The position numbers were made by a program, and so were the translations under genes. 64,000 nucleotides of DNA from assembly GCF_030384885.1 (NCBI RefSeq), contig NZ_CP128613.1; one strand, given 5' to 3'. Below are positions 10,706 to 53,189 of this stretch, one piece after another. The number at the start of each line of letters is the position of its first letter. Position 1 is the stretch's first letter. The notes below the pieces were generated by a model. That model was not told where the DNA came from. It made no database searches and saw only the letters and a program-made list of their open reading frames with translations. This stretch comes from Escherichia coli. Lineage in GTDB: Bacteria; Pseudomonadota; Gammaproteobacteria; Enterobacterales; Enterobacteriaceae.

Positions 10706-11053
10706 GATGCCCTCCAAAATGGTTATTTTTTATTGTGAATTAAGATAGGTGAGTACGACGTAAAAAGATGTGAAGCAAATCACATCAGTGTAATCGCTTA
10801 CACTAACATTTATCTTAGTTATGATTTAAGTGCATGAAAATAATTGAGTTATATCATCATAGATTAAACGCAGTTATCTGCAATTAAGACTTTACTGAAA
10901 AGAAATGTAACAGCTGTGAAAACTGAATAATAATATGAAAATATTACAAATATTTGGCTGGTGTGGTGGGTGTAATCGGTTTCAGTCGTGGTGATGATTT
11001 GAGGGTAAAACGTGTTCAGGAAGAATGATGTTATTGTGCAGGCGGTTTTTTTT

Positions 11054-11130
11054 GCCGGATGCGGCGTGAACGCCTTATCCTTTTACATGTGACAGCGGTT
11101 GTGGGCCTGATAAGCGTAGCGCATCAGGCA
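11054..11130. repeat. REP/BIME elements between metK and galP
   Basis: gccggatgcggcgtgaacgccttatcc and gcctgataagcgtagcgcatcaggca REP palindromes. Confidence 0.6.
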
Positions 11131-11137
11131 TTTCTCT

Positions 11138-11168
11138 GGAAAAGAAAAAGGCCAGCGCGAGGCTGGCC
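11138..11168 (-). terminator. Probable rho-independent terminator of metK
   Basis: ggccagc/gctggcc hairpin followed by a T-run on the minus strand, 25 nt downstream of the metK stop. Confidence 0.5.
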
Positions 11169-11190
11169 TTTGAAAGCAGGTGAAGAAAGA

Positions 11191-15116: not shown

Positions 15117-15135
15117 TTAAGATTATTCCGCTATC

Positions 15136-15175
15136 GGGTCGATTTATTTACGTAAATCGGCCCGCTTTCTTTTTA
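15136..15175 (+). terminator. Rho-independent terminator after speA
   Basis: 11-bp stem gggtcgattta/taaatcggccc with 6-nt loop, followed by a T-rich tract. Confidence 0.6.
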
Positions 15176-15261
15176 TATATTCTTAAAAATAATTTAGCTG
15201 CTTTCCTTATTGAATAATCTCCCTACAATCGCTGCATTAATTAAATGCAGAGGGAACGGTT

Positions 15262-15993
15262 ATGAAAAAATGGAAAGTACGTAGCGCGTTGGTGGCATTA
15301 GTCGTGCTGCTGGCCGGTTGTTCCAGTAATGCGCAGTATAATAGCAGTGCATCGGGCAATGTCGGCACCGCCTGGGGTGGGGATGTGCACTCAACGGTTC
15401 AGGGCGTATCTGCTGAACGAGCCTGGCGCGATCCGGCAGAGATGATCGTTATTAGTTATTCGACTAATGTTCCTTCCGGCTACGACCGCGTTTATAGCAT
15501 TCGTATTAACGAACTTGAATATGCTATTCGCGATGGTAATTTTAATTCTCTACCTATTACGCGGGTTTATAATTCATCAGGTAAAGAACTACGCTATATA
15601 GTCCATGCCAGAGTAGGAATGAATTACCAATTATATGTCCGCAATTACAGTCGTAACACCAACTACGAGATCGTTGCGACAGTTGATGGCCTGGATGTTC
15701 TCAATGGTAAACAAGGTTCCCTGAATAACAACGGCTATATTGTGAATGCCGGGGATTCGTTGGCGATTAAAGGATTCCGCAAAGATAAACATACCGAAGC
15801 GGCTTTTCAGTTCGCCAACGTTGCTGATTCCTACGCAGCCAATTCGGCGCAAGGCGATGTGCGTAATATCGGTGTAATCGGCTTTGCCGCCTTTGAATTA
15901 CAAGGCCCGGCGCAAAACGCGCTGCCACCGTGCTCTGGACAAGCGTTTCCGGCGGACAACAATGGCTATGCGCCGCCACCGTGTCGGAAATAG
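15262..15993 (+). CDS. Predicted lipoprotein of unknown function (accessory gene between speA and speB)
   Basis: 243-aa ORF; signal peptide plus lipobox LLAGC-SS; Asn/Tyr/Ser-rich mature part; own terminator downstream; AT-richer than neighbours. Confidence 0.7.
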   Translation: MKKWKVRSALVALVVLLAGCSSNAQYNSSASGNVGTAWGGDVHSTVQGVSAERAWRDPAEMIVISYSTNVPSGYDRVYSIRINELEYAIRDGNFNSLPITRVYNSSGKELRYIVHARVGMNYQLYVRNYSRNTNYEIVATVDGLDVLNGKQGSLNNNGYIVNAGDSLAIKGFRKDKHTEAAFQFANVADSYAANSAQGDVRNIGVIGFAAFELQGPAQNALPPCSGQAFPADNNGYAPPPCRK

Positions 15994-18226: not shown

Positions 18227-20218
18227 ATGTCCTCACGTAAAGAGCTTGCCAATGCTATTCGTGCGCTGAGCATGGACGCAGTACAGAAAGCCAAATCCGG
18301 TCACCCGGGTGCCCCTATGGGTATGGCTGACATTGCCGAAGTCCTGTGGCGTGATTTCCTGAAACACAACCCGCAGAATCCGTCCTGGGCTGACCGTGAC
18401 CGCTTCGTGCTGTCCAACGGCCACGGCTCCATGCTGATCTACAGCCTGCTGCACCTCACCGGTTACGATCTGCCGATGGAAGAACTGAAAAACTTCCGTC
18501 AACTGCATTCCAAAACTCCGGGCCACCCGGAAGTGGGTTACACCGCTGGTGTGGAAACCACTACAGGTCCGCTGGGTCAGGGTATTGCCAATGCAGTCGG
18601 TATGGCGATTGCAGAAAAAACGCTGGCGGCACAGTTTAACCGTCCGGGCCACGACATCGTCGACCACTACACCTACGCCTTCATGGGCGACGGCTGCATG
18701 ATGGAAGGCATCTCCCATGAAGTTTGCTCTCTGGCGGGTACGCTGAAGCTGGGTAAACTGATTGCGTTCTACGATGACAACGGTATCTCTATCGATGGTC
18801 ACGTTGAAGGCTGGTTTACTGACGACACCGCAATGCGTTTCGAAGCTTACGGCTGGCACGTTATTCGCGGCATCGACGGTCATGACGCGGCATCCATCAA
18901 ACGCGCAGTAGAAGAAGCGCGCGCAGTGACTGACAAACCGTCCCTGCTGATGTGCAAAACCATCATCGGTTTCGGTTCACCGAACAAAGCCGGTACGCAC
19001 GACTCCCACGGTGCGCCGCTGGGCGACGCTGAAATTGCCCTGACCCGCGAACAGCTGGGCTGGAAATATGCACCGTTCGAAATCCCGTCTGAAATCTATG
19101 CTCAGTGGGATGCGAAAGAAGCAGGCCAGGCGAAAGAATCCGCATGGAACGAGAAATTCGCTGCTTACGCCAAAGCTTATCCGCAGGAAGCCGCTGAATT
19201 TACCCGCCGTATGAAAGGCGAAATGCCGTCTGACTTCGATGCCAAAGCGAAAGAATTCATCGCTAAACTGCAGGCTAATCCGGCGAAAATCGCCAGCCGT
19301 AAAGCGTCTCAGAATGCGATTGAAGCGTTCGGCCCGCTGTTGCCGGAATTCCTCGGCGGCTCTGCTGACCTGGCACCGTCTAACCTGACCCTGTGGTCTG
19401 GTTCTAAAGCAATCAACGAAGATGCTGCGGGTAACTACATCCACTATGGTGTTCGCGAGTTCGGTATGACCGCGATTGCTAACGGTATCTCCCTGCACGG
19501 TGGCTTCCTGCCGTACACCTCCACCTTCCTGATGTTCGTGGAATACGCACGTAACGCCGTACGTATGGCTGCGCTGATGAAACAGCGTCAGGTGATGGTT
19601 TACACCCACGACTCCATCGGTCTGGGCGAAGATGGCCCGACTCACCAGCCGGTAGAGCAGGTCGCTTCTCTGCGCGTGACCCCGAACATGTCTACATGGC
19701 GTCCGTGTGACCAGGTTGAATCCGCGGTCGCGTGGAAATACGGCGTTGAGCGTCAGGACGGCCCGACTGCGCTTATCCTCTCCCGTCAGAACCTGGCGCA
19801 GCAGGAACGTACTGAAGAGCAGCTGGCAAACATCGCGCGCGGTGGTTATGTGCTGAAAGACTGTGCCGGTCAGCCGGAACTGATCTTCATCGCTACCGGT
19901 TCTGAAGTTGAACTGGCGGTTGCTGCCTACGAAAAACTGACTGCTGAAGGCGTGAAAGCGCGCGTGGTTTCCATGCCGTCTACCGACGCATTCGACAAGC
20001 AGGATGCGGCTTACCGTGAGTCTGTACTGCCGAAAGCGGTTACTGCACGCGTTGCGGTGGAAGCTGGCATTGCTGACTACTGGTACAAGTATGTTGGCCT
20101 GAACGGTGCTATCGTCGGCATGACCACCTTCGGTGAATCTGCTCCGGCAGAGCTGCTGTTTGAAGAGTTCGGCTTCACCGTTGACAACGTTGTTGCGAAA
20201 GCAAAAGAACTGCTGTAA
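18227..20218 (+). CDS. tktA: Transketolase 1
   Basis: 663 aa from [28 protein letters not shown]; TPP-binding motifs. Confidence 0.95.
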
Positions 20219-20240
20219 TCGGTAAGATGCTTTGTGAGAA

Positions 20241-20266
20241 GGGCCGCGAAAGCGGCCCTTTTTTTA
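20241..20266 (+). terminator. Rho-independent terminator of tktA in the convergent gap
   Basis: gggccgc-gaaa-gcggccc hairpin followed by ttttttt; T-run overlaps the stop of the convergent SPFH gene. Confidence 0.55.
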
Positions 20267-21172
20267 CTTAGTAGAGATAAACGGAACTGTACTGCCGGGG
20301 ATCATGGTATCGGGTAGCTTACCGTCCCAACGCTCAGCAGTGGTGAGGGCAACAAGTCCGGGATTATCCCGCAGAGCTTCACCGCGCAGGCGGATCGCTT
20401 CTGCTTCAGCCGCACTTTTTAAACGAATAGTTTCAGCCTCTGCCGCGCCTCTTACGCGAATAGTCTCAGCTTCTGCTTTGGCTGCCGCCAGTTTACTGTC
20501 TGCTTCTGCCTGGGCCTGAGTTACCGCTATTTGCGCCTGGATTTTCTCTGTTTCCAGATTTTGCTTACGTGTGGCAATGGCGACTTCTGCTTTCATTCGA
20601 TCTTCAATCGATTTTTCATAAGCGTCAGAAAAATCAATATTTTCAATCTGGACACCATCAATCACCACCGGGCCAACAACGGCTTTACGCATTGCATTTT
20701 GCAGATCCTGAACCAGTTTTGTACGATCCTGTACCGCGCTGATGGCGGTATATTGGCCGAAAACGTTCTCCAGTTGAGTTGGCAACTGACGGACAATCAG
20801 ACGATCTTTTAATGCTTCAATGGTGTTGTAGGTGGTATAAACCGCGCCTGCTTCTGAAGGTTTAATGTGGAAGCTGACTGATACTGTCATTTGTGCCGGT
20901 TGCTGGTCGCGGCTGTAGGCCTGTAATCCCTGATAAACCACAGCCTGATTACGCGTGGAAATTTTCTCTACGCTTTCCATAAAAGGGATCTTAAAACCCA
21001 GACCCGGCTCGGCAACTTTTACGATTTTTCCGTAGCGCAGCAAAATGCCGCGTTCACCTTCATTAACGGTGTAATACGAGAGAAATGGCAGCACAACCAC
21101 GGTAAGCACGCCAATGGCGATAGCAATAGATTTTTGTGGGCGAAATGAGGTTATTGAAACAGGTGCTTTCAT
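20264..21172 (-). CDS. SPFH/band-7 (prohibitin/HflC-like) membrane protein, standalone
   Basis: 302-aa ORF; N-terminal TM helix SIAIAIGVLTVVVLPFLSYY, SPFH core, C-terminal Ala/Glu-rich coiled coil with repeated AEAETIRxxG units; RBS aaggaag 9 nt upstream. Confidence 0.8.
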   Translation of the reverse strand: MKAPVSITSFRPQKSIAIAIGVLTVVVLPFLSYYTVNEGERGILLRYGKIVKVAEPGLGFKIPFMESVEKISTRNQAVVYQGLQAYSRDQQPAQMTVSVSFHIKPSEAGAVYTTYNTIEALKDRLIVRQLPTQLENVFGQYTAISAVQDRTKLVQDLQNAMRKAVVGPVVIDGVQIENIDFSDAYEKSIEDRMKAEVAIATRKQNLETEKIQAQIAVTQAQAEADSKLAAAKAEAETIRVRGAAEAETIRLKSAAEAEAIRLRGEALRDNPGLVALTTAERWDGKLPDTMIPGSTVPFISTK

Positions 21173-21547
21173 GAGAATCTTCCTTGAGTAAAGTGTGGGA
21201 ATATGTCACATGAGGTGAGGAGAAAACAGCCAACAGGTGAGAATTCAGAATCTATAAAGGGGGAGAGCGAAAAACATCGGCTAAAAAAGTATGTTTTCGA
21301 ACATTCAATAGATAAATAGAGATATGCATCACAAATACATAGGCAGATAAAACATTGGTTTTGTGATAAACATAGCAAACACAAACTTGACTTTATAAGT
21401 ATAAATTTCATGTTGTTGTTATTTAACATTTTATTATTTTGGTTCATGTTTTTTTTCTTCTCGCGTGCCCAATTGCTTTCATTAAATCGCACGAGTATTT
21501 TATTTTTACCGCCGGACGGTACCCTAAAAATAAAATAAGGATAATTT
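21173..21547. other. Strongly AT-rich 375-bp tract between the SPFH gene and cmtB
   Basis: Visibly far below the ~50% GC of flanking genes; long A/T runs; likely promoter region for both divergent units. Confidence 0.6.
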
Positions 21548-21991
21548 ATGCGGCTTATTGATTATTTTCCAGAATCATCAATCTCAGTTATACATTCAGC
21601 AAAAGATTGGCAGGAAGCTATCAATTTCTCGATGGCATCATTGCTGGATAAAAACTATATCAGCGAGAATTACATTCAGGCTATTAAAGATTCCACCATT
21701 AACAATGGCCCTTATTATATTCTCGCACCAAGCGTGGCAATGCCTCATGCGCGACCGGAATGTGGGGCGCTTAAAACCGGGATGTCTTTGACGTTACTTA
21801 AACAAGGCGTTTATTTTCCGGGGAATGACGAACCGATTAAATTACTTATCGGTCTTTCTGCTGCCGATGCCGATTCGCACATTGGCGCTATTCAGGCGTT
21901 AAGTGAATTGCTGTGCGAAGAAGAAATACTTGAACAACTCTTAACTGCAACATCAGAAAAACAATTAGCGGACATTATCAGCCGCGAATAA
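21548..21991 (+). CDS. cmtB: Mannitol-type PTS enzyme IIA component (cryptic cmt system)
   Basis: 147-aa ORF MRLIDYFPESSISVIHSAKDWQEA; PTS EIIA-2 fold with conserved His (AMPHARPE). Confidence 0.85.
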   Translation: MRLIDYFPESSISVIHSAKDWQEAINFSMASLLDKNYISENYIQAIKDSTINNGPYYILAPSVAMPHARPECGALKTGMSLTLLKQGVYFPGNDEPIKLLIGLSAADADSHIGAIQALSELLCEEEILEQLLTATSEKQLADIISRE

Positions 21992-22018
21992 TGACTCTCT
22001 CCTCTACAGGATAATATT

Positions 22019-23407
22019 ATGGAAAACAAGTCTGCTCGTGCAAAGGTCCAGGCTTTTGGGGGCTTTTTGACTGCAATGGTCATTCCCAATATTGGTGCTT
22101 TTATTGCCTGGGGTTTTATAACGGCGTTATTTATTCCCACCGGTTGGTTGCCTAACGAACATTTCGCCAAAATTGTCGGCCCCATGATCACCTATTTATT
22201 ACCGGTGATGATTGGTTCTACCGGTGGCCATTTAGTCGGCGGTAAACGCGGCGCGGTAATGGGCGGAATAGGGACAATTGGTGTAATCGTCGGCGCAGAG
22301 ATTCCGATGTTCCTTGGCTCAATGATCATGGGACCGTTAGGTGGGCTGGTCATAAAATATGTCGATAAGGCACTGGAAAAACGCATACCTGCTGGTTTTG
22401 AGATGGTTATCAATAACTTCTCATTAGGTATCGCTGGGATGCTCCTTTGTCTGCTGGGTTTTGAAGTTATCGGCCCGGCGGTGTTAATTGCCAATACTTT
22501 CGTCAAAGAGTGTATTGAGGCGCTGGTACATGCGGGCTATCTGCCTTTGCTGTCAGTCATCAATGAACCGGCGAAAGTGCTTTTCCTCAATAACGCGATA
22601 GATCAGGGCGTCTATTACCCGTTAGGGATGCAACAGGCTTCAGTTAACGGTAAATCCATCTTCTTTATGGTGGCGTCCAACCCTGGGCCTGGCTTAGGGC
22701 TGCTGCTGGCATTTACCTTGTTTGGTAAAGGGATGAGTAAACGTTCTGCGCCTGGGGCGATGATTATTCACTTCCTCGGCGGCATCCACGAACTGTATTT
22801 CCCGTATGTGCTGATGAAGCCACTGACCATTATTGCCATGATTGCGGGCGGTATGTCTGGCACCTGGATGTTTAACTTACTGGACGGTGGTCTGGTGGCT
22901 GGTCCAAGTCCGGGGTCTATCTTTGCTTACCTTGCACTGACGCCGAAAGGCTCGTTCCTGGCGACAATTGCCGGTGTTACGGTAGGTACCCTGGTGTCCT
23001 TTGCTATCACTTCCGTAATACTGAAGATGGAAAAAACGGTGGAAACGGAGAGCGAAGATGAGTTTGTGCAGTCCGCCAATGCGGTTAAGGCGATGAAACA
23101 AGAAGGTACATTCTCGTTAAGCCGGGTTAAGCGTATCGCCTTTGTTTGCGATGCGGGAATGGGCTCTAGCGCGATGGGCGCAACCACCTTCCGTAAGCGC
23201 CTGGAAAAAGCGGGGCTGGCAATAGAAGTAAAACATTACGCGATAGAAAACGTGCCTGCAGATGTGGATATCGTCGTTACTCACGCTAGTCTGGAAGGGC
23301 GCGTGAAACGTGTGACGGATAAACCGCTGATATTGATTAATAACTATATTGGCGATCCCAAACTCGACACTTTATTTAATCAATTAACCGCTGAACATAA
23401 AAACTGA
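22019..23407 (+). CDS. cmtA: Mannitol-type PTS enzyme IICB component (cryptic cmt system)
   Basis: 462-aa ORF; polytopic EIIC followed by EIIB domain (FVCDAGMGSS). Confidence 0.85.
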   Translation: MENKSARAKVQAFGGFLTAMVIPNIGAFIAWGFITALFIPTGWLPNEHFAKIVGPMITYLLPVMIGSTGGHLVGGKRGAVMGGIGTIGVIVGAEIPMFLGSMIMGPLGGLVIKYVDKALEKRIPAGFEMVINNFSLGIAGMLLCLLGFEVIGPAVLIANTFVKECIEALVHAGYLPLLSVINEPAKVLFLNNAIDQGVYYPLGMQQASVNGKSIFFMVASNPGPGLGLLLAFTLFGKGMSKRSAPGAMIIHFLGGIHELYFPYVLMKPLTIIAMIAGGMSGTWMFNLLDGGLVAGPSPGSIFAYLALTPKGSFLATIAGVTVGTLVSFAITSVILKMEKTVETESEDEFVQSANAVKAMKQEGTFSLSRVKRIAFVCDAGMGSSAMGATTFRKRLEKAGLAIEVKHYAIENVPADVDIVVTHASLEGRVKRVTDKPLILINNYIGDPKLDTLFNQLTAEHKN

Positions 23408-26192: not shown

Positions 26193-26902
26193 AAATTGAC
26201 TTAACGGTGAATGGTCTGAAGGTACAAGCACAGTACCATGTTGATGAGATAGAAAATGTACATAAACCGTTGCTGCGTATGTTGGCGGCCTTACAGACGG
26301 TAAATCCGCAGCGGCGTACCGTGGTTTTTCTTTGCGCTCCGCCGGGGACGGGTAAATCTACCCTAACCACTTTCTGGGAATATCTCACGCAACAAGACCC
26401 GGAACTACCCACTATTCAGACGCTGCCGATGGATGGTTTTCACCATTACAATAACTGGCTGGATGCGCATCAATTGCGCCCCTTTAAAGGCGCACCAGAG
26501 ACATTCGATGTGGCAAAACTGGTGGAAAATCTGCGCCAGGTAATGGAAGGGGATTGTACGTGGCCGCAGTACGATCGACAAAAGCATGAGCCTGTTGAAG
26601 ATGCGTTGCACGTTACCGCACCACTCGTCATCGTCGAAGGAAACTGGTTGTTGCTGGACGACGAGAAGTGGTGCCAGCTTGCGCAATTTTGTGATTTCTC
26701 GATCTTTATCAACGCGCCAGCTACTGCGTTGCAGGAACGACTGGTGGGGCGCAAGCTGGCGGGAGGGTTATCGCTGGCAGACGCAGAAGCCTTTTATGAC
26801 CGTACCGATGGGCCGAATGTTCGCCGGGTGCTGGAAGAGAGTCTGCCTGCAAATTTGACCTTAATGATGACCGCTACGGGTGAATATCGTCTGGTGGATT
26901 AA
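26189..26902 (+). CDS. yggC: Putative P-loop kinase YggC
   Basis: 237-aa ORF with Walker A PPGTGKST; 4-nt overlap with yggD. Confidence 0.75.
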   Translation: MKIDLTVNGLKVQAQYHVDEIENVHKPLLRMLAALQTVNPQRRTVVFLCAPPGTGKSTLTTFWEYLTQQDPELPTIQTLPMDGFHHYNNWLDAHQLRPFKGAPETFDVAKLVENLRQVMEGDCTWPQYDRQKHEPVEDALHVTAPLVIVEGNWLLLDDEKWCQLAQFCDFSIFINAPATALQERLVGRKLAGGLSLADAEAFYDRTDGPNVRRVLEESLPANLTLMMTATGEYRLVD

Positions 26903-27584
26903 CGTTCCTGATTACACCATCTTCCAGTCGCACCACACGAGAGAAATGACGCCGGGTAAATGCGGCGTCATGACTGATTGCTACGACGCTCGTGCCTCGC
27001 TGGCGGCACTTTTCCAGCCAGCTTTCAAACACGCTCATCCAATTTTCGTCAAAATCCCGACTCGGCTCGTCCAGCAGCAATAGCGGCGGAGAGAGTGCTT
27101 CCAGGCAGGCGACGGCGACCATCCGTCGCTGCGCACTATGCAGATCTAACGGATGCGCGCTGGCAGTGTCTGCTAACTGACAGCATTGCAGGGCAGCATT
27201 GGTACGTTGAGTGATTTCATCCGCCAGGCATTTTTGCAGTTTCAAACCAAATGCGATCTCGTCAGCGACGGTGCTGTGAAAAAGCTGGTTTTCCGCTTCC
27301 TGAAACAGTACGCCAATCTTTGCTGCACGTTGGCGGTTTTTCAGGTTTTTCATCGCCTGTTGTTGCAGTATAACCGTACCGGTTGTGGGCGTAAGAAGAC
27401 CTGCCATTACTCGTAACAGCGTCGATTTTCCCGCGCCATTGTCGCCGGTCAGCGCCAACCATTCACCTTGTTTGAGTTGCAGAGAAATGTCGCAAAGACA
27501 ATCCGTTGCCGCGCCAGGCCAGCGATAAGACATCTGATTTAACGTTAACATAGTGGCTGGAGCGCTCCGTTTTGCAATTGCCAC
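26874..27584 (-). CDS. ECF/ABC transporter ATPase subunit (A2-like, degenerate signature motif)
   Basis: 236-aa ORF (alternative start Met12 at 27551, overlapping upstream stop as ATGnTAA); Walker A GDNGAGKST, Walker B LLLLDEP, H-loop ISHD; signature LHSAQRR instead of LSGGQ; 3' end overlaps yggC convergently. Confidence 0.75.
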   Translation of the reverse strand: MAIAKRSAPATMLTLNQMSYRWPGAATDCLCDISLQLKQGEWLALTGDNGAGKSTLLRVMAGLLTPTTGTVILQQQAMKNLKNRQRAAKIGVLFQEAENQLFHSTVADEIAFGLKLQKCLADEITQRTNAALQCCQLADTASAHPLDLHSAQRRMVAVACLEALSPPLLLLDEPSRDFDENWMSVFESWLEKCRQRGTSVVAISHDAAFTRRHFSRVVRLEDGVIRNVNPPDDIHP

Positions 27585-28228
27585 GCTTGCTGGCAGTAGT
27601 TCAGGAAAGGTGTGCGATGACGTTCAAAAAGAATAATCAGCGAACCACGTTCAAACGCCCAGTGTTGTAAGCGCTGCAACAGCATTTCGCTGGCCTGCGG
27701 CGTCAGGCGACTAAAGGCTTCATCAAGAATTAATAGTTTTGGCTGCATCGCGATGGCGCAGGCGATGACCACGCGCTGTGTCTCTCCACCGGAGAGTGTT
27801 GCCGGGTGACGATGGCGCAACGGCTGGCACTCGGTCAGAGTCAGGGCGGCATCAATCCGCGCCATAATCTCCTCTTCAGCAAGACACAGATTTTCTGGCC
27901 CAAAGGCAACTTCTTCTTCCACGCTAAAGGTACAGCCGGAGAGCTGCAAATAGGGCGATTGCTGAACGAGCTGGATGGTGGCGGATTGTTCATTAAGCGG
28001 GAGATACCCAATGGGCGTACCGAGAAGCGTCCCCGTGCCGGTTATCTCTCCTGGCAGAAAGTCCGGATACCAGCCCGCCATCAGTTGCGCCAGCGTACTT
28101 TTGCCACAGCCGTTGTCGCCAAAGATGGCGACTATCCCCGGTTTGACATAGTGAAAGTCATAACAGAACGGAGGGTGCGTTGAGTGTGTCGGGCAATAGC
28201 GAAACTGTTCTAACGTAACCATATCCAC
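27545..28228 (-). CDS. ECF/ABC transporter ATPase subunit (A1-like)
   Basis: 227-aa ORF; Walker A GDNGCGKST, signature LSGGETQR, Walker B LLILDEA. Confidence 0.75.
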   Translation of the reverse strand: MDMVTLEQFRYCPTHSTHPPFCYDFHYVKPGIVAIFGDNGCGKSTLAQLMAGWYPDFLPGEITGTGTLLGTPIGYLPLNEQSATIQLVQQSPYLQLSGCTFSVEEEVAFGPENLCLAEEEIMARIDAALTLTECQPLRHRHPATLSGGETQRVVIACAIAMQPKLLILDEAFSRLTPQASEMLLQRLQHWAFERGSLIILFERHRTPFLNYCQQAWQLQNGALQPLC

Positions 28229-28917
28229 GCTCCGAATTCTGCCAGCATCAGCAAGATCATGGCGTAACGTGCCACTTTTTCCAGGTTACTGTCAGGCGGT
28301 GCCCATAACGTAGTGCGCCGGTTGTGGATCCGAAATGCCCGCATATCCAGCGCCGCACCACGGATAGCCAGATCGTTTAGCGCATTGTGTGTTAGCGGAA
28401 TAATTAGCGCGGGTATAGCACGTAAACGCTGATACCAGCCCTCATCCAGCGGCACGCCACGGGCGCGCTGCGCTTCATGAATAATCGCTAATTGCCGTTT
28501 TAACTGCTCAACGACCAACAAAGGCCCGGCGAACAGATAAGCGACGCCCGGCGGCAGGCGAGAAGCAAACAAAGCGCGGATAAAACGTTGCACTGGGACG
28601 AATTGCATCCACAACTGCGAGGTTGAAACAATCGCGAGAATCCGCAGCCAGAGCGTAATAGCATGCGTCCACCGTTCTGGCGAGCGTGGCGTGCCGTTTA
28701 GCCATTCTGTCAGCCAGCCACCGTGTACCAGCCACAGTCCAGCCCCCAGCGAGAACATCAGCCAGACAACATATTTTGCCCGCCGCCGCGTGGCCTTTAG
28801 CGCAATAAGGCAGAAAAAGGTCGCCGCGCTATAGACTGTCAGTATTGTCTGTGTGGGCAGGATAAGCGTGGTGCAGGCCGCCAGCGCCCACAGCGTTAGG
28901 GATGTAAACGGATGCAT
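28210..28917 (-). CDS. ECF transporter transmembrane (T) component, CbiQ/EcfT family
   Basis: 235-aa polytopic ORF with C-terminal AQRARG and AIRGAALDMRAF motifs typical of EcfT; start abuts stop of upstream gene. Confidence 0.75.
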   Translation of the reverse strand: MHPFTSLTLWALAACTTLILPTQTILTVYSAATFFCLIALKATRRRAKYVVWLMFSLGAGLWLVHGGWLTEWLNGTPRSPERWTHAITLWLRILAIVSTSQLWMQFVPVQRFIRALFASRLPPGVAYLFAGPLLVVEQLKRQLAIIHEAQRARGVPLDEGWYQRLRAIPALIIPLTHNALNDLAIRGAALDMRAFRIHNRRTTLWAPPDSNLEKVARYAMILLMLAEFGAWIWLR

Positions 28918-29499
28918 TTAGCGCACGGCAGCCATTGCCGGAAAATGGCGCGTGGTGCGAATCGGCAGCTGACGCAGTAAAAGCCAGACAATCACCGCTG
29001 TAAGAATTTTATCGACCAGGTTTGCGCCTATCACCGTAATCGCCACCGACTCCACCAGGTTTTGCCCCATAGAGTGCATCCAGGCAACGAACAAATCGGC
29101 TCCGCTACCGGTGACACCGCCGAACAGCGCAGTACGCAGCGGTACAGCGACGACCGTTACTGCAAGCGTAATAATCACGCCGCTGACAACGACTTTTGGC
29201 AGGGTGCGAAACCAACCCGCTCGCGCCAGCCAACCGGCGACCAAGCCAATAACCATCGCCACGGGGGCAAAGGCGGCGGCGATCGGGTCGGTGAGCAATC
29301 CCCAGAGTAAATTGGTCAGTAAGCCGGTCAGCATCCCGATCACCGGACCAAGCAGTACCGCGCTAATAAGTGTGCCGATGGAGTCGAGAAATATAGGTAA
29401 TTTGACCATGCTGGCCAGTTGCCCGCCAATCATATTGATGGCGATAGAGATAACAATCAACACCAGTGCTTGACTGGAAAAGTGGCGACGCGCCATAAG
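28918..29499 (-). CDS. ECF transporter substrate-specific (S) component-like membrane protein
   Basis: About 193 aa from Met33 (ORF could start at 29595); about six TM helices; LPIFLDSIGT motif resembling ECF S components (YkoE/ThiW-like); substrate unknown. Confidence 0.65.
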   Translation of the reverse strand, partial: LMARRHFSSQALVLIVISIAINMIGGQLASMVKLPIFLDSIGTLISAVLLGPVIGMLTGLLTNLLWGLLTDPIAAAFAPVAMVIGLVAGWLARAGWFRTLPKVVVSGVIITLAVTVVAVPLRTALFGGVTGSGADLFVAWMHSMGQNLVESVAITVIGANLVDKILTAVIVWLLLRQLPIRTTRHFPAMAAVR

Positions 29500-29518
29500 A
29501 AAACCTCTCTGAAAGTAG

Positions 29519-29950
29519 TTATTTAACGGGGGAAATATGCAATTCGTCGTAACCAGAAAGCGCGCAAGGTTGGCGGCTAAACGCCAGCTCCTCAAGGCAG
29601 CCGATCACCAGTTCAAGCGTGGTCCGCACGGTACAGCCGGGCATCATATGACCGCCAAGTATCGTGCCGTGTGGATCGGAAACGCAGAGATGAAGATGTT
29701 CACCACTCTGTTCCAGTGTGCCGTTCAATGCGATGACTTCGAACTTACCGCTTAGTAGGGCCGTGTTTTCTTGCCCGGCATAGCGTAAGGCGACGTCAGT
29801 CAGACTGCCGGTACAACCTGCAATCCACGCGGCGTGGAGTTGTTGTTGCTGCGCGAAGGCGCGTAATTGGGAGAGAACTTCCTGTCCTGGGAGCAGGCGC
29901 AGCGCGTAAAAGCGTGCGGAGGAAGAATATGGGTAGGGCAATGTCATCAT
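29519..29950 (-). CDS. DUF296/PPC-domain protein (first gene of the ECF module)
   Basis: 143-aa ORF; pattern RLLPGQEVLSQL...AWIAGCTGSL...LSGKFEVIALNGTL...HLHLCVSD...GGHMMPGCTVRTTLELVI fits the PPC (DUF296) fold consensus. Confidence 0.7.
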   Translation of the reverse strand: MMTLPYPYSSSARFYALRLLPGQEVLSQLRAFAQQQQLHAAWIAGCTGSLTDVALRYAGQENTALLSGKFEVIALNGTLEQSGEHLHLCVSDPHGTILGGHMMPGCTVRTTLELVIGCLEELAFSRQPCALSGYDELHISPVK

Positions 29951-52818: not shown

Positions 52819-53189
52819 TTTGAAATAAACTAATTTCACCTCCGTTTTCGCATTATATTTTCTAATGTTACGAATTTTTGATTTAGTGTTTTTTGACATT
52901 TTTTCAGTTCTTAATATTGTCTTATTCAAATTAAGTTTCTCATCACATCATCTTTGTATAGAAAGTGGAATGTTTTTTGGTTTTTTATTCTGTTGCTATT
53001 CTGGCGTTTTTTAACCATAAGCTAATGTGATGATCAATTTTACCTTATGGTTAACAGTCTGTTTCGGTGGTAAGTTCAGGGAAAAGAGAACGATTGCGTT
53101 GGGGACCGGGAGTGGCTCCGATGCTGGGTTTCGTGGTGATAATTTCACCATGAAAAAGTTGTCAGCCCCGCTTATTCAATGAGGACAAG

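Follow-up and report, generated by a model that had tools for sequence, protein, structure and literature searches.

RESULTS

An AT-rich tract separates the SPFH gene from cmtB

The window, i.e., the whole 64-kb stretch of DNA that was analyzed, is 100% identical to positions 4433997-4497996 of E. coli 2013C-4282 (NZ_CP027579.1). The region considered here comprises two genes and the DNA between them, as follows:

20264-21172, minus strand: prohibitin/SPFH (Band_7) family gene, 302 aa (Pfam PF01145, E = 5.6e-32); GC 48.3%
21173-21547, no strand: AT-rich divergent intergenic tract of 375 bp between the SPFH gene and cmtB, probable control region
21548-21991, plus strand: cmtB, PTS EIIA (Pfam PTS_EIIA_2), RefSeq annotation; GC 41.7%

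cmtB is the first gene of cmtB-cmtA-yggP-glpX-fumE(yggD)-yggC, and the RefSeq annotation of the 2013C-4282 record holds no feature within 21173-21547. The sharp drop in composition and the long A/T runs described in the original prediction were confirmed by a GC scan, the A/T-rich string quoted there lying at 21410-21457. The GC content of the tract is 32.8% versus 51.7% for the whole window, a value reached or undercut by 0.37% of all 375-bp intervals; its center (21301-21465, 165 bp) is at 26%, and nowhere in the 64 kb does GC fall lower than over 21282-21656 (30.4%). The tract is unusual even among intergenic DNA. When spacers of 50 bp or longer are pooled (36 in all), their GC is 44.1%, and the tract ranks second lowest among them and lowest among those that reach 100 bp. 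Its AT content lies far above average over at least 100 to 200 bp, as in H-NS-type DNA.

The tract consists of three segments with distinct conservation

Haplotypes were counted by BLAST against 5426 complete E. coli genomes. The SPFH gene is accessory in this species, being found in ~1816-1825 of the 5426 genomes (about one third), and the other E. coli strains (among them K-12, O157:H7, and ETEC H10407-like ones) display tkt, a 313-bp spacer, and cmtB, with no SPFH gene. Comparison of these haplotypes divides the tract into three segments:

21173-21285, minus strand: SPFH-proximal segment, found in SPFH-carrying haplotypes only; ~40% GC
21286-21465, no strand: hypervariable AT-rich core containing the CRP boxes; ~25-26% GC
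21466-21547, plus strand: cmtB-proximal conserved core of 82 bp; ~97% identity in 5404/5426 E. coli genomes

In the SPFH-proximal segment, E. coli alleles with SPFH and the cryptic-clade species are 79-88% identical to one another; aligned identity to the K-12-type spacer is 11%, so that the segment has no counterpart there. The AT-rich core is homologous across haplotypes: E. coli alleles with SPFH are 72-86% identical to one another in this core, and their identity to the K-12 type is ~52%. The 82-bp core is conserved with or without SPFH.

Two conserved CRP boxes lie in the hypervariable core

The PWM used to score CRP sites was derived from the ChIP-seq data of Haycocks et al. 2015 (PMC4287617); it rests on 106 sites, the cmtB site itself being left out. 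Exactly two strong boxes were found in the tract, accompanied by three short invariant islands:

21318-21333, no strand: CRP box 1, AGAGATATGCATCACA, 12.0 bits, centered 222.5 bp upstream of the cmtB ATG
21362-21377, no strand: CRP box 2, TGTGATAAACATAGCA, 11.7 bits, centered 178.5 bp upstream of the cmtB ATG
21306-21317, no strand: conserved box CAATAGATAAAT, its CAATA invariant in 8/8 aligned alleles and species
21387-21391, no strand: TTGAC box, candidate -35-like element or factor site, invariant in 8/8 aligned sequences
21417-21421, no strand: TGTTA box, invariant in 8/8 aligned sequences

The whole 64-kb window contains 13 PWM matches of at least 10 bits, and a maximum of at least 10 bits arises in the shuffled tract with P = 0.037, so that the tract does match the CRP consensus. 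The two boxes are spaced by 44 bp and lie on the same face of the DNA. Box 1 sits at the same position in all aligned alleles and species, and the position of box 2 is kept in seven of eight aligned alleles or species (9/12 sequences scored overall), the box being lost in the EC02/GABEEC132 allele. The distances of 222.5 and 178.5 bp to the cmtB ATG are the same in E. coli with and without SPFH, and E. whittamii and Escherichia sp. MOD1 share them. The E. albertii boxes lie 216.5 and 172.5 bp from the cmtB ATG with scores of up to 16.7 bits, thus keeping the same 44-bp spacing although the surrounding sequence is only ~52% identical.

In its K-12/ETEC-type version, CGTGTTGTAGATCACA, box 1 is the site that CRP ChIP-seq attributed to cmtB in ETEC H10407 (PMC4287617) and is also the genomic-SELEX site listed for "cmtBA-yggPFDC < tktA" in K-12 (PMC3105977 supplement). 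Moreover, the activity of a K-12 cmtB promoter fusion was reduced in a crp mutant (PMC3105977), indicating that CRP acts as an activator. CRP occupancy and crp dependence are published for the K-12-type allele, and both are predicted for the SPFH-carrying allele. The tract is probably an activatable promoter region and not merely a silencer. The original prediction had missed both conserved CRP sites as well as the documented CRP activation of the K-12 cmtB promoter.

Two promoter arrangements within the AT-rich core were considered and rejected: the TTGAC box (21387-21391) as a -35 element has no conserved -10 partner, and a class II CRP promoter made of box 2 and TATAAA (21400-21405) would depend on a -10 that is not kept in other alleles.

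AT-richness belongs to the cmtB control region rather than to SPFH acquisition

Beside the SPFH gene, the following elements were read from the sequence:

21179-21185, minus strand: SPFH Shine-Dalgarno, AAGGAAG
21249-21254, minus strand: conserved -10-like TAGATT, putative SPFH promoter

We infer from them that the segment 21173-21285 corresponds to the promoter and 5' UTR of SPFH. The SPFH start is predicted at ~21242, and CRP box 1, which lies ~83 bp upstream of it, may act on this promoter too.

The original prediction took the tract for typical H-NS nucleation/silencing DNA, suggestive of a foreign origin of SPFH and of a possible silencing of the cryptic cmtBA operon. This would make it a silencing tract that arrived with a horizontally acquired gene, an explanation which we consider unlikely. 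It agrees with the strong AT-richness of the tract, where TpA steps are 2 times and A4/T4 tracts 4 times as frequent as the window average, with the accessory status of SPFH, and with the existence of ~70%-identical SPFH copies on Enterobacter and Kosakonia plasmids. However, the SPFH-less K-12-type tkt-cmtB spacer is equally AT-rich (31.9-32.9% GC), and the AT-rich parts of the two spacers are homologous, though diverged. AT-richness is therefore a property of the cmtB control region and not a mark of SPFH acquisition. The GC content of SPFH is also higher than that of cmtB. Furthermore, a synteny scan (one genome per species) recovered the order tkt-SPFH-cmtB-cmtA in E. whittamii (SPFH 99% amino acid identity), Escherichia sp. 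MOD1-EC7003 (99%), and E. albertii (95%), and in Pseudocitrobacter SPFH (85%) adjoins tkt in convergent orientation. More distant SPFH homologues (50-60%) occur in Shewanella, Pseudomonas, and others.

Given this synteny in three other Escherichia species and the Pseudocitrobacter neighbor, SPFH looks ancestral within Escherichia and lost or replaced in K-12-like lineages, and neither the foreign origin proposed for it nor a recent horizontal acquisition is supported. The K-12-like state looks as if ~1.07 kb (from the tkt stop to ~21285) had been lost or replaced by ~65 bp with a different tkt terminator. A search for SPFH on E. coli plasmids gave a single match of at least 99%, which proved to be a 4.9-Mb chromosome filed as a plasmid.

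H-NS binding itself is plausible for the tract, from its composition and from the S2 Table of Higashi et al. 2016, where the cmtBA-yggPFDC transcription unit is flagged as H-NS-bound (PMC4720273). This published flag makes H-NS silencing plausible as well. Its resolution is coarse, since the same unit label is also carried by epd, pgk, and fbaA and the flag covers the unit and not the spacer (PMC4720273). Our literature search for direct H-NS data on cmtB/cmtA returned this unit-level flag only and no hns derepression data; for alleles that carry SPFH, it yielded neither direct H-NS data nor expression data. No sequence hallmark of nucleation stood out: the sole match to the high-affinity H-NS motif in the tract, TAGATAAATA at 21309, has 2 mismatches, overlaps CAATAGATAAAT, and is expected from composition with P = 0.63, which is no enrichment. 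The wedge model gave a moderate curvature, which ranks at the 2.4th percentile within the window and falls outside its 8 most curved loci. Both the motif and the curvature figures are approximate.

The cmtB-proximal core carries a candidate promoter and a conserved dyad

The 82-bp core contains the elements expected next to cmtB:

21473-21501, plus strand: candidate weak sigma-70 core promoter, TTGCTT (21473-21478), 17-bp spacer, TATTTT (21496-21501)
21507-21521, no strand: conserved dyad TACCG-N5-CGGTA, in all Escherichia alleles
21496-21537, no strand: perfect 13-nt A/T inverted repeat, TATTTTATTTTTA / TAAAAATAAAATA, flanking the dyad
21537-21541, plus strand: cmtB Shine-Dalgarno AAGGA, inside the invariant run AAAATAAGGAT (21532-21542)

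A strict sigma-70 consensus scan of 20100-21700 returned zero promoter-like sites. The TTGCTT-17-TATTTT arrangement occupies the same position in all alleles and takes the form TTGATT-16-TATTCT in E. albertii despite the diverged spacer sequence, and a transcription start is predicted from it near 21508. The two CRP boxes would then be centered ~138.5 and ~182.5 bp upstream of this predicted start. As canonical class I/II positions are -41.5, -61.5 ... -92.5, the boxes lie beyond them, suggesting either that another promoter is used or that activation is indirect, e.g., by countering H-NS.

The dyad, which reads TACCGC-TCG-GCGGTA in E. albertii, is a candidate operator or a 5'-terminal mRNA hairpin. 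As an operator, it may be a target of FumE/YggD, which belongs to the MtlR family (Pfam MtlR, E = 3.5e-52).

The position of the dyad and its flanking repeat, just upstream of the Shine-Dalgarno in a highly conserved core, would also suit an RNA element, either an unannotated small RNA or an extended, structured leader of cmtB, with 21496-21537 acting as an RNA switch. We regard this explanation as quite improbable. An Rfam 15 scan of 19500-23000 (E <= 1) gave no match in the tract, its sole hit being a subthreshold one on the tkt terminator, and a terminator consensus scan found no site in the tract, terminator-like matches sitting inside genes. The consensus fold of the 21496-21537 hairpin contains no compensatory pairs and has an unfavorable covariation term. 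Moreover, the outer repeat arms are absent in E. albertii and are therefore probably not a conserved element. With zero compensatory changes and the arms lost in that species, an RNA structure is not claimed.

The variable part of the tract exists as deeply diverged alleles

The allele of the tract found in the window is rare, with at least 99% identity in 11/5426 genomes, while ~1480 genomes carry alleles at 80-90% identity and ~290 at 60-80%. The variable part differs by 11-20% among E. coli strains, which is about the divergence between E. coli and E. whittamii at the same spacer. This divergence ends abruptly at the SPFH start codon on one side and at the 82-bp core on the other, the flanking genes being 96-99.9% (SPFH) and 95-97% (cmtB) identical. 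Between FDA1252 and EC02, for instance, 2/909 SPFH positions differ versus 20% of the tract positions. The synonymous divergence of the flanks reaches up to 0.33 at the 3' end of tkt, ~0.12 in cmtB, and up to 0.31 in cmtA. As it is also high, part of the tract diversity reflects old mosaic haplotypes and not a promoter-specific acceleration.

A divergence of 11-20% against a neighboring dS of 0.06-0.3 means that the middle segment diverges as fast as or faster than neighboring synonymous sites. This would fit a neutral spacer, in which AT-richness and divergence would result from mutation bias and relaxed constraint and regulatory content would be confined to the 82-bp core. This explanation is very unlikely in our view because the CRP, TTGAC, and TGTTA boxes stand at fixed spacing across haplotypes and species in an otherwise saturated sequence, and because of the published CRP binding and CRP dependence described above.

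In one natural isolate, FMU073332, the tract is interrupted by IS1 shortly upstream of the candidate -35, and the insertion is accompanied by a 9-bp duplication, CCCAATTGC.

The open reading frames of the tract are not conserved

One long frame covers most of the tract:

21169-21492, minus strand: ORF of 107 aa (92 aa from the first ATG), judged noncoding

Its TGA overlaps the SPFH ATG as ATGA, an overlap that had been correctly described from the start, as had the noncoding status of the frame. The frame belongs to a 129-codon stop-free stretch, unusual for the composition (P ~5e-4 in shuffles). In the protein collection, the 92-aa form is represented only by E. coli "hypothetical protein" entries, with 8 near-identical variants including C->R and L->P changes. 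It occurs on ~60 contigs and is called in a few GenBank E. coli records and not annotated by RefSeq; RefSeq locus tags jump from RS22490 to RS22500, and the missing RS22495 may correspond to a withdrawn call of the 92/107-aa ORF. However, outside this rare allele the frame is closed, being interrupted by 2-12 stops or frameshifts in 10/10 other alleles and species. Substitutions are spread evenly over codon positions against every other allele (chi-square p = 0.5-1.0), with no third-position excess. Its composition is low complexity, rich in Asn, Cys, and Leu, and no clear Shine-Dalgarno precedes it. A Pfam search with the 107-aa and 42-aa ORFs gave no domain match. On these grounds, a real young gene whose translation is coupled to that of SPFH by the ATGA overlap is hardly credible.

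The 42-aa ORF (21410-21538, plus strand), which ends at the cmtB Shine-Dalgarno, was rejected as a leader peptide. Its start codon is lost in STE15, and deletions shift its frame in E. albertii (5 nt) and in FDA1252 (1 nt).

DISCUSSION

Our analysis argues, with a probability of roughly 80%, for a gene-free bidirectional control region of the cmtBA-yggP operon and of the SPFH gene, activated by CRP and probably bound by H-NS. The feature is genuine but ordinary, namely, an allelic variant of a promoter region already documented as a CRP target. We propose a model in which the 82-bp core would provide a weak sigma-70 promoter, a dyad at about the predicted start, and a ribosome-binding site for cmtB, and in which the ~180 bp upstream of this core would be free to vary in sequence while retaining the CRP boxes and two short invariant boxes. 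Binding of cAMP-CRP at the two boxes would activate the poorly expressed ("cryptic") cmtBA-yggP operon from upstream, possibly through an additional upstream promoter or by counteracting silencing. The AT-rich DNA is probably covered by H-NS, which would account for a low basal expression and for the freedom of the sequence to drift. On the other side, the 113 bp adjacent to SPFH would serve as its promoter and 5' UTR.

The closest known system is the homologous K-12 tktA-cmtB region, which shares the 82-bp cmtB-proximal core, the two CRP boxes at equal distances, and a GC content of ~32%. It differs by its length (313 bp), by the absence of SPFH and of the ~113-bp promoter/UTR segment, by another tkt terminator, and by an AT-rich middle that is only ~52% identical. 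The paralogous mannitol PTS operon mtlADR, with its MtlR repressor, resembles the cmt operon in having several CRP boxes upstream; however, the mtlA region has a GC content of 42.5% and no TACCG-N5-CGGTA dyad. An operator shared with the mtlA regulatory region was rejected, as the similarity is confined to the CRP boxes.

The bgl operon is a cryptic PTS operon that is silenced by H-NS, depends on CRP, and is activated by IS1 or IS5 insertion. The cmt operon resembles it as a "cryptic" PTS sugar operon with AT-rich upstream DNA, CRP site(s), and the IS1 insertion in FMU073332. Unlike in bgl, this IS1 sits between the CRP boxes and the core promoter and not upstream of the boxes, and H-NS-caused crypticity and IS activation are bgl features that we do not carry over to cmt.

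Moreover, a tentative and rather doubtful hypothesis could be that the region upstream of cmtB persists as several deeply diverged promoter alleles that have kept just the scaffold of CRP boxes in common, either as a long-lived, trans-species regulatory polymorphism or through repeated regulatory switching. H-NS shielding could permit such divergence, and IS1 could occasionally rewire the region as in bgl. Horizontal regulatory switching has reportedly been described in E. coli (Oren et al. 2014). The combination of conserved coding flanks and a strongly diverged upstream region also recalls the fast-diversifying H-NS-bound upstream regions, where spacers bound by H-NS show a median diversity of 0.016 versus 0.0067 for unbound ones (PMC4720273).

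The consequence of our study is mostly one of annotation: the tract is best interpreted as a region, activated by CRP and probably bound by H-NS, that controls cmtBA-yggP and the accessory SPFH gene, and the "hypothetical protein" call of 92/107 aa should not be propagated. Beside this, AT-richness next to an accessory gene is no evidence of foreignness, and at this locus the SPFH-less state appears to be the derived one. The deep allelic divergence coupled to a conserved scaffold of CRP boxes makes the region a natural test case for the diversification of H-NS-bound promoters.

Recombination and repeats around the SPFH gene

The locus spanning the 3' end of tkt, cmtB and cmtA (19850-23047) is a recombination mosaic. 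E. coli strains differ very strongly at synonymous sites all along it, with synonymous divergence reaching 0.33 in the tkt 3' end and 0.31 in cmtA; dN in cmtB is ~0.02, and our window carries a divergent allele of cmtA. The breakpoints are abrupt, as in one strain pair where the AT-rich tract between the SPFH gene and cmtB is only 80% identical, yet the SPFH gene itself is 99.8% identical.

In other SPFH-carrying strains, the interval from the tkt terminator to the SPFH stop codon contains one or two copies of a REP/BIME-like repeat of ~170 bp, which accounts for two-piece BLAST matches with longer spans; in the window strain, this repeat is absent from the same interval. The example located is the following:
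E. coli CB209 (locus L002 of our comparison), 1550-1905, corresponding to about 20250-20262 in the window: REP/BIME-like repeats

A sub-threshold Rfam match to Aggregatibacter sRNA 20 (20203-20270, plus strand; 30.5 bits versus a gathering score of 43) coincides with the tkt terminator hairpin and most likely reflects a chance resemblance to a terminator.

The AT-rich tract: insertion sequence and minus-strand ORF

In E. coli FMU073332, the tract is interrupted by an IS1 (1796-2575 of that strain's locus, L011) at a site equivalent to 21468-21476 in the window and flanked by a 9-bp target duplication, CCCAATTGC. The insertion lies directly upstream of the candidate -35 element of cmtB and splits both CRP boxes from the candidate core promoter. 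Such an arrangement recalls the bgl operon, a cryptic operon activated by IS insertion.

Several GenBank entries for E. coli (e.g., EFI4024122.1) list the 92-aa form of the minus-strand ORF at 21169-21492 as a "hypothetical protein". In RefSeq, locus tag RS22495 is missing at this place, between C6996_RS22490 and RS22500, and this jump suggests a withdrawn gene call.

Other low-GC and accessory-looking loci

Besides the tract, the low-GC loci of the window are these two:
10706-11190: galP-metK spacer, 38.6% GC, 375-bp minimum of 33.9%
52899-53188: spacer upstream of gcvT, 37.2% GC, minimum of 32.0%

The latter is adjoined by a 27-aa hypothetical CDS. Both galP and gcvT are among the listed CRP targets (PMC4287617, PMC3105977).

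Accessory-looking gene content was found at two further places:
15262-15993, plus strand: "hypothetical protein" gene (243 aa) between speA and speB
26874-29950, minus strand: genes for two ABC ATPases, ECF-transporter T and S components, and a PPC-domain DNA-binding protein

The 243-aa gene is preceded by a 145-bp spacer (15117-15261) of 33.8% GC. Since speA and speB are adjacent in K-12, this gene may be a further accessory insertion preceded by AT-rich DNA. The ABC ATPase/ECF-transporter cluster, which sits between a yggC-like kinase gene and epd, also appears to be accessory relative to K-12.

SPFH homologues on plasmids

Plasmids of Enterobacter and Kosakonia, about 84 to 131 kb in size (homologue entries H72 to H82), carry prohibitin-family proteins sharing 67 to 72% identity with the SPFH protein. 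The prohibitin family is, therefore, mobile outside Escherichia.
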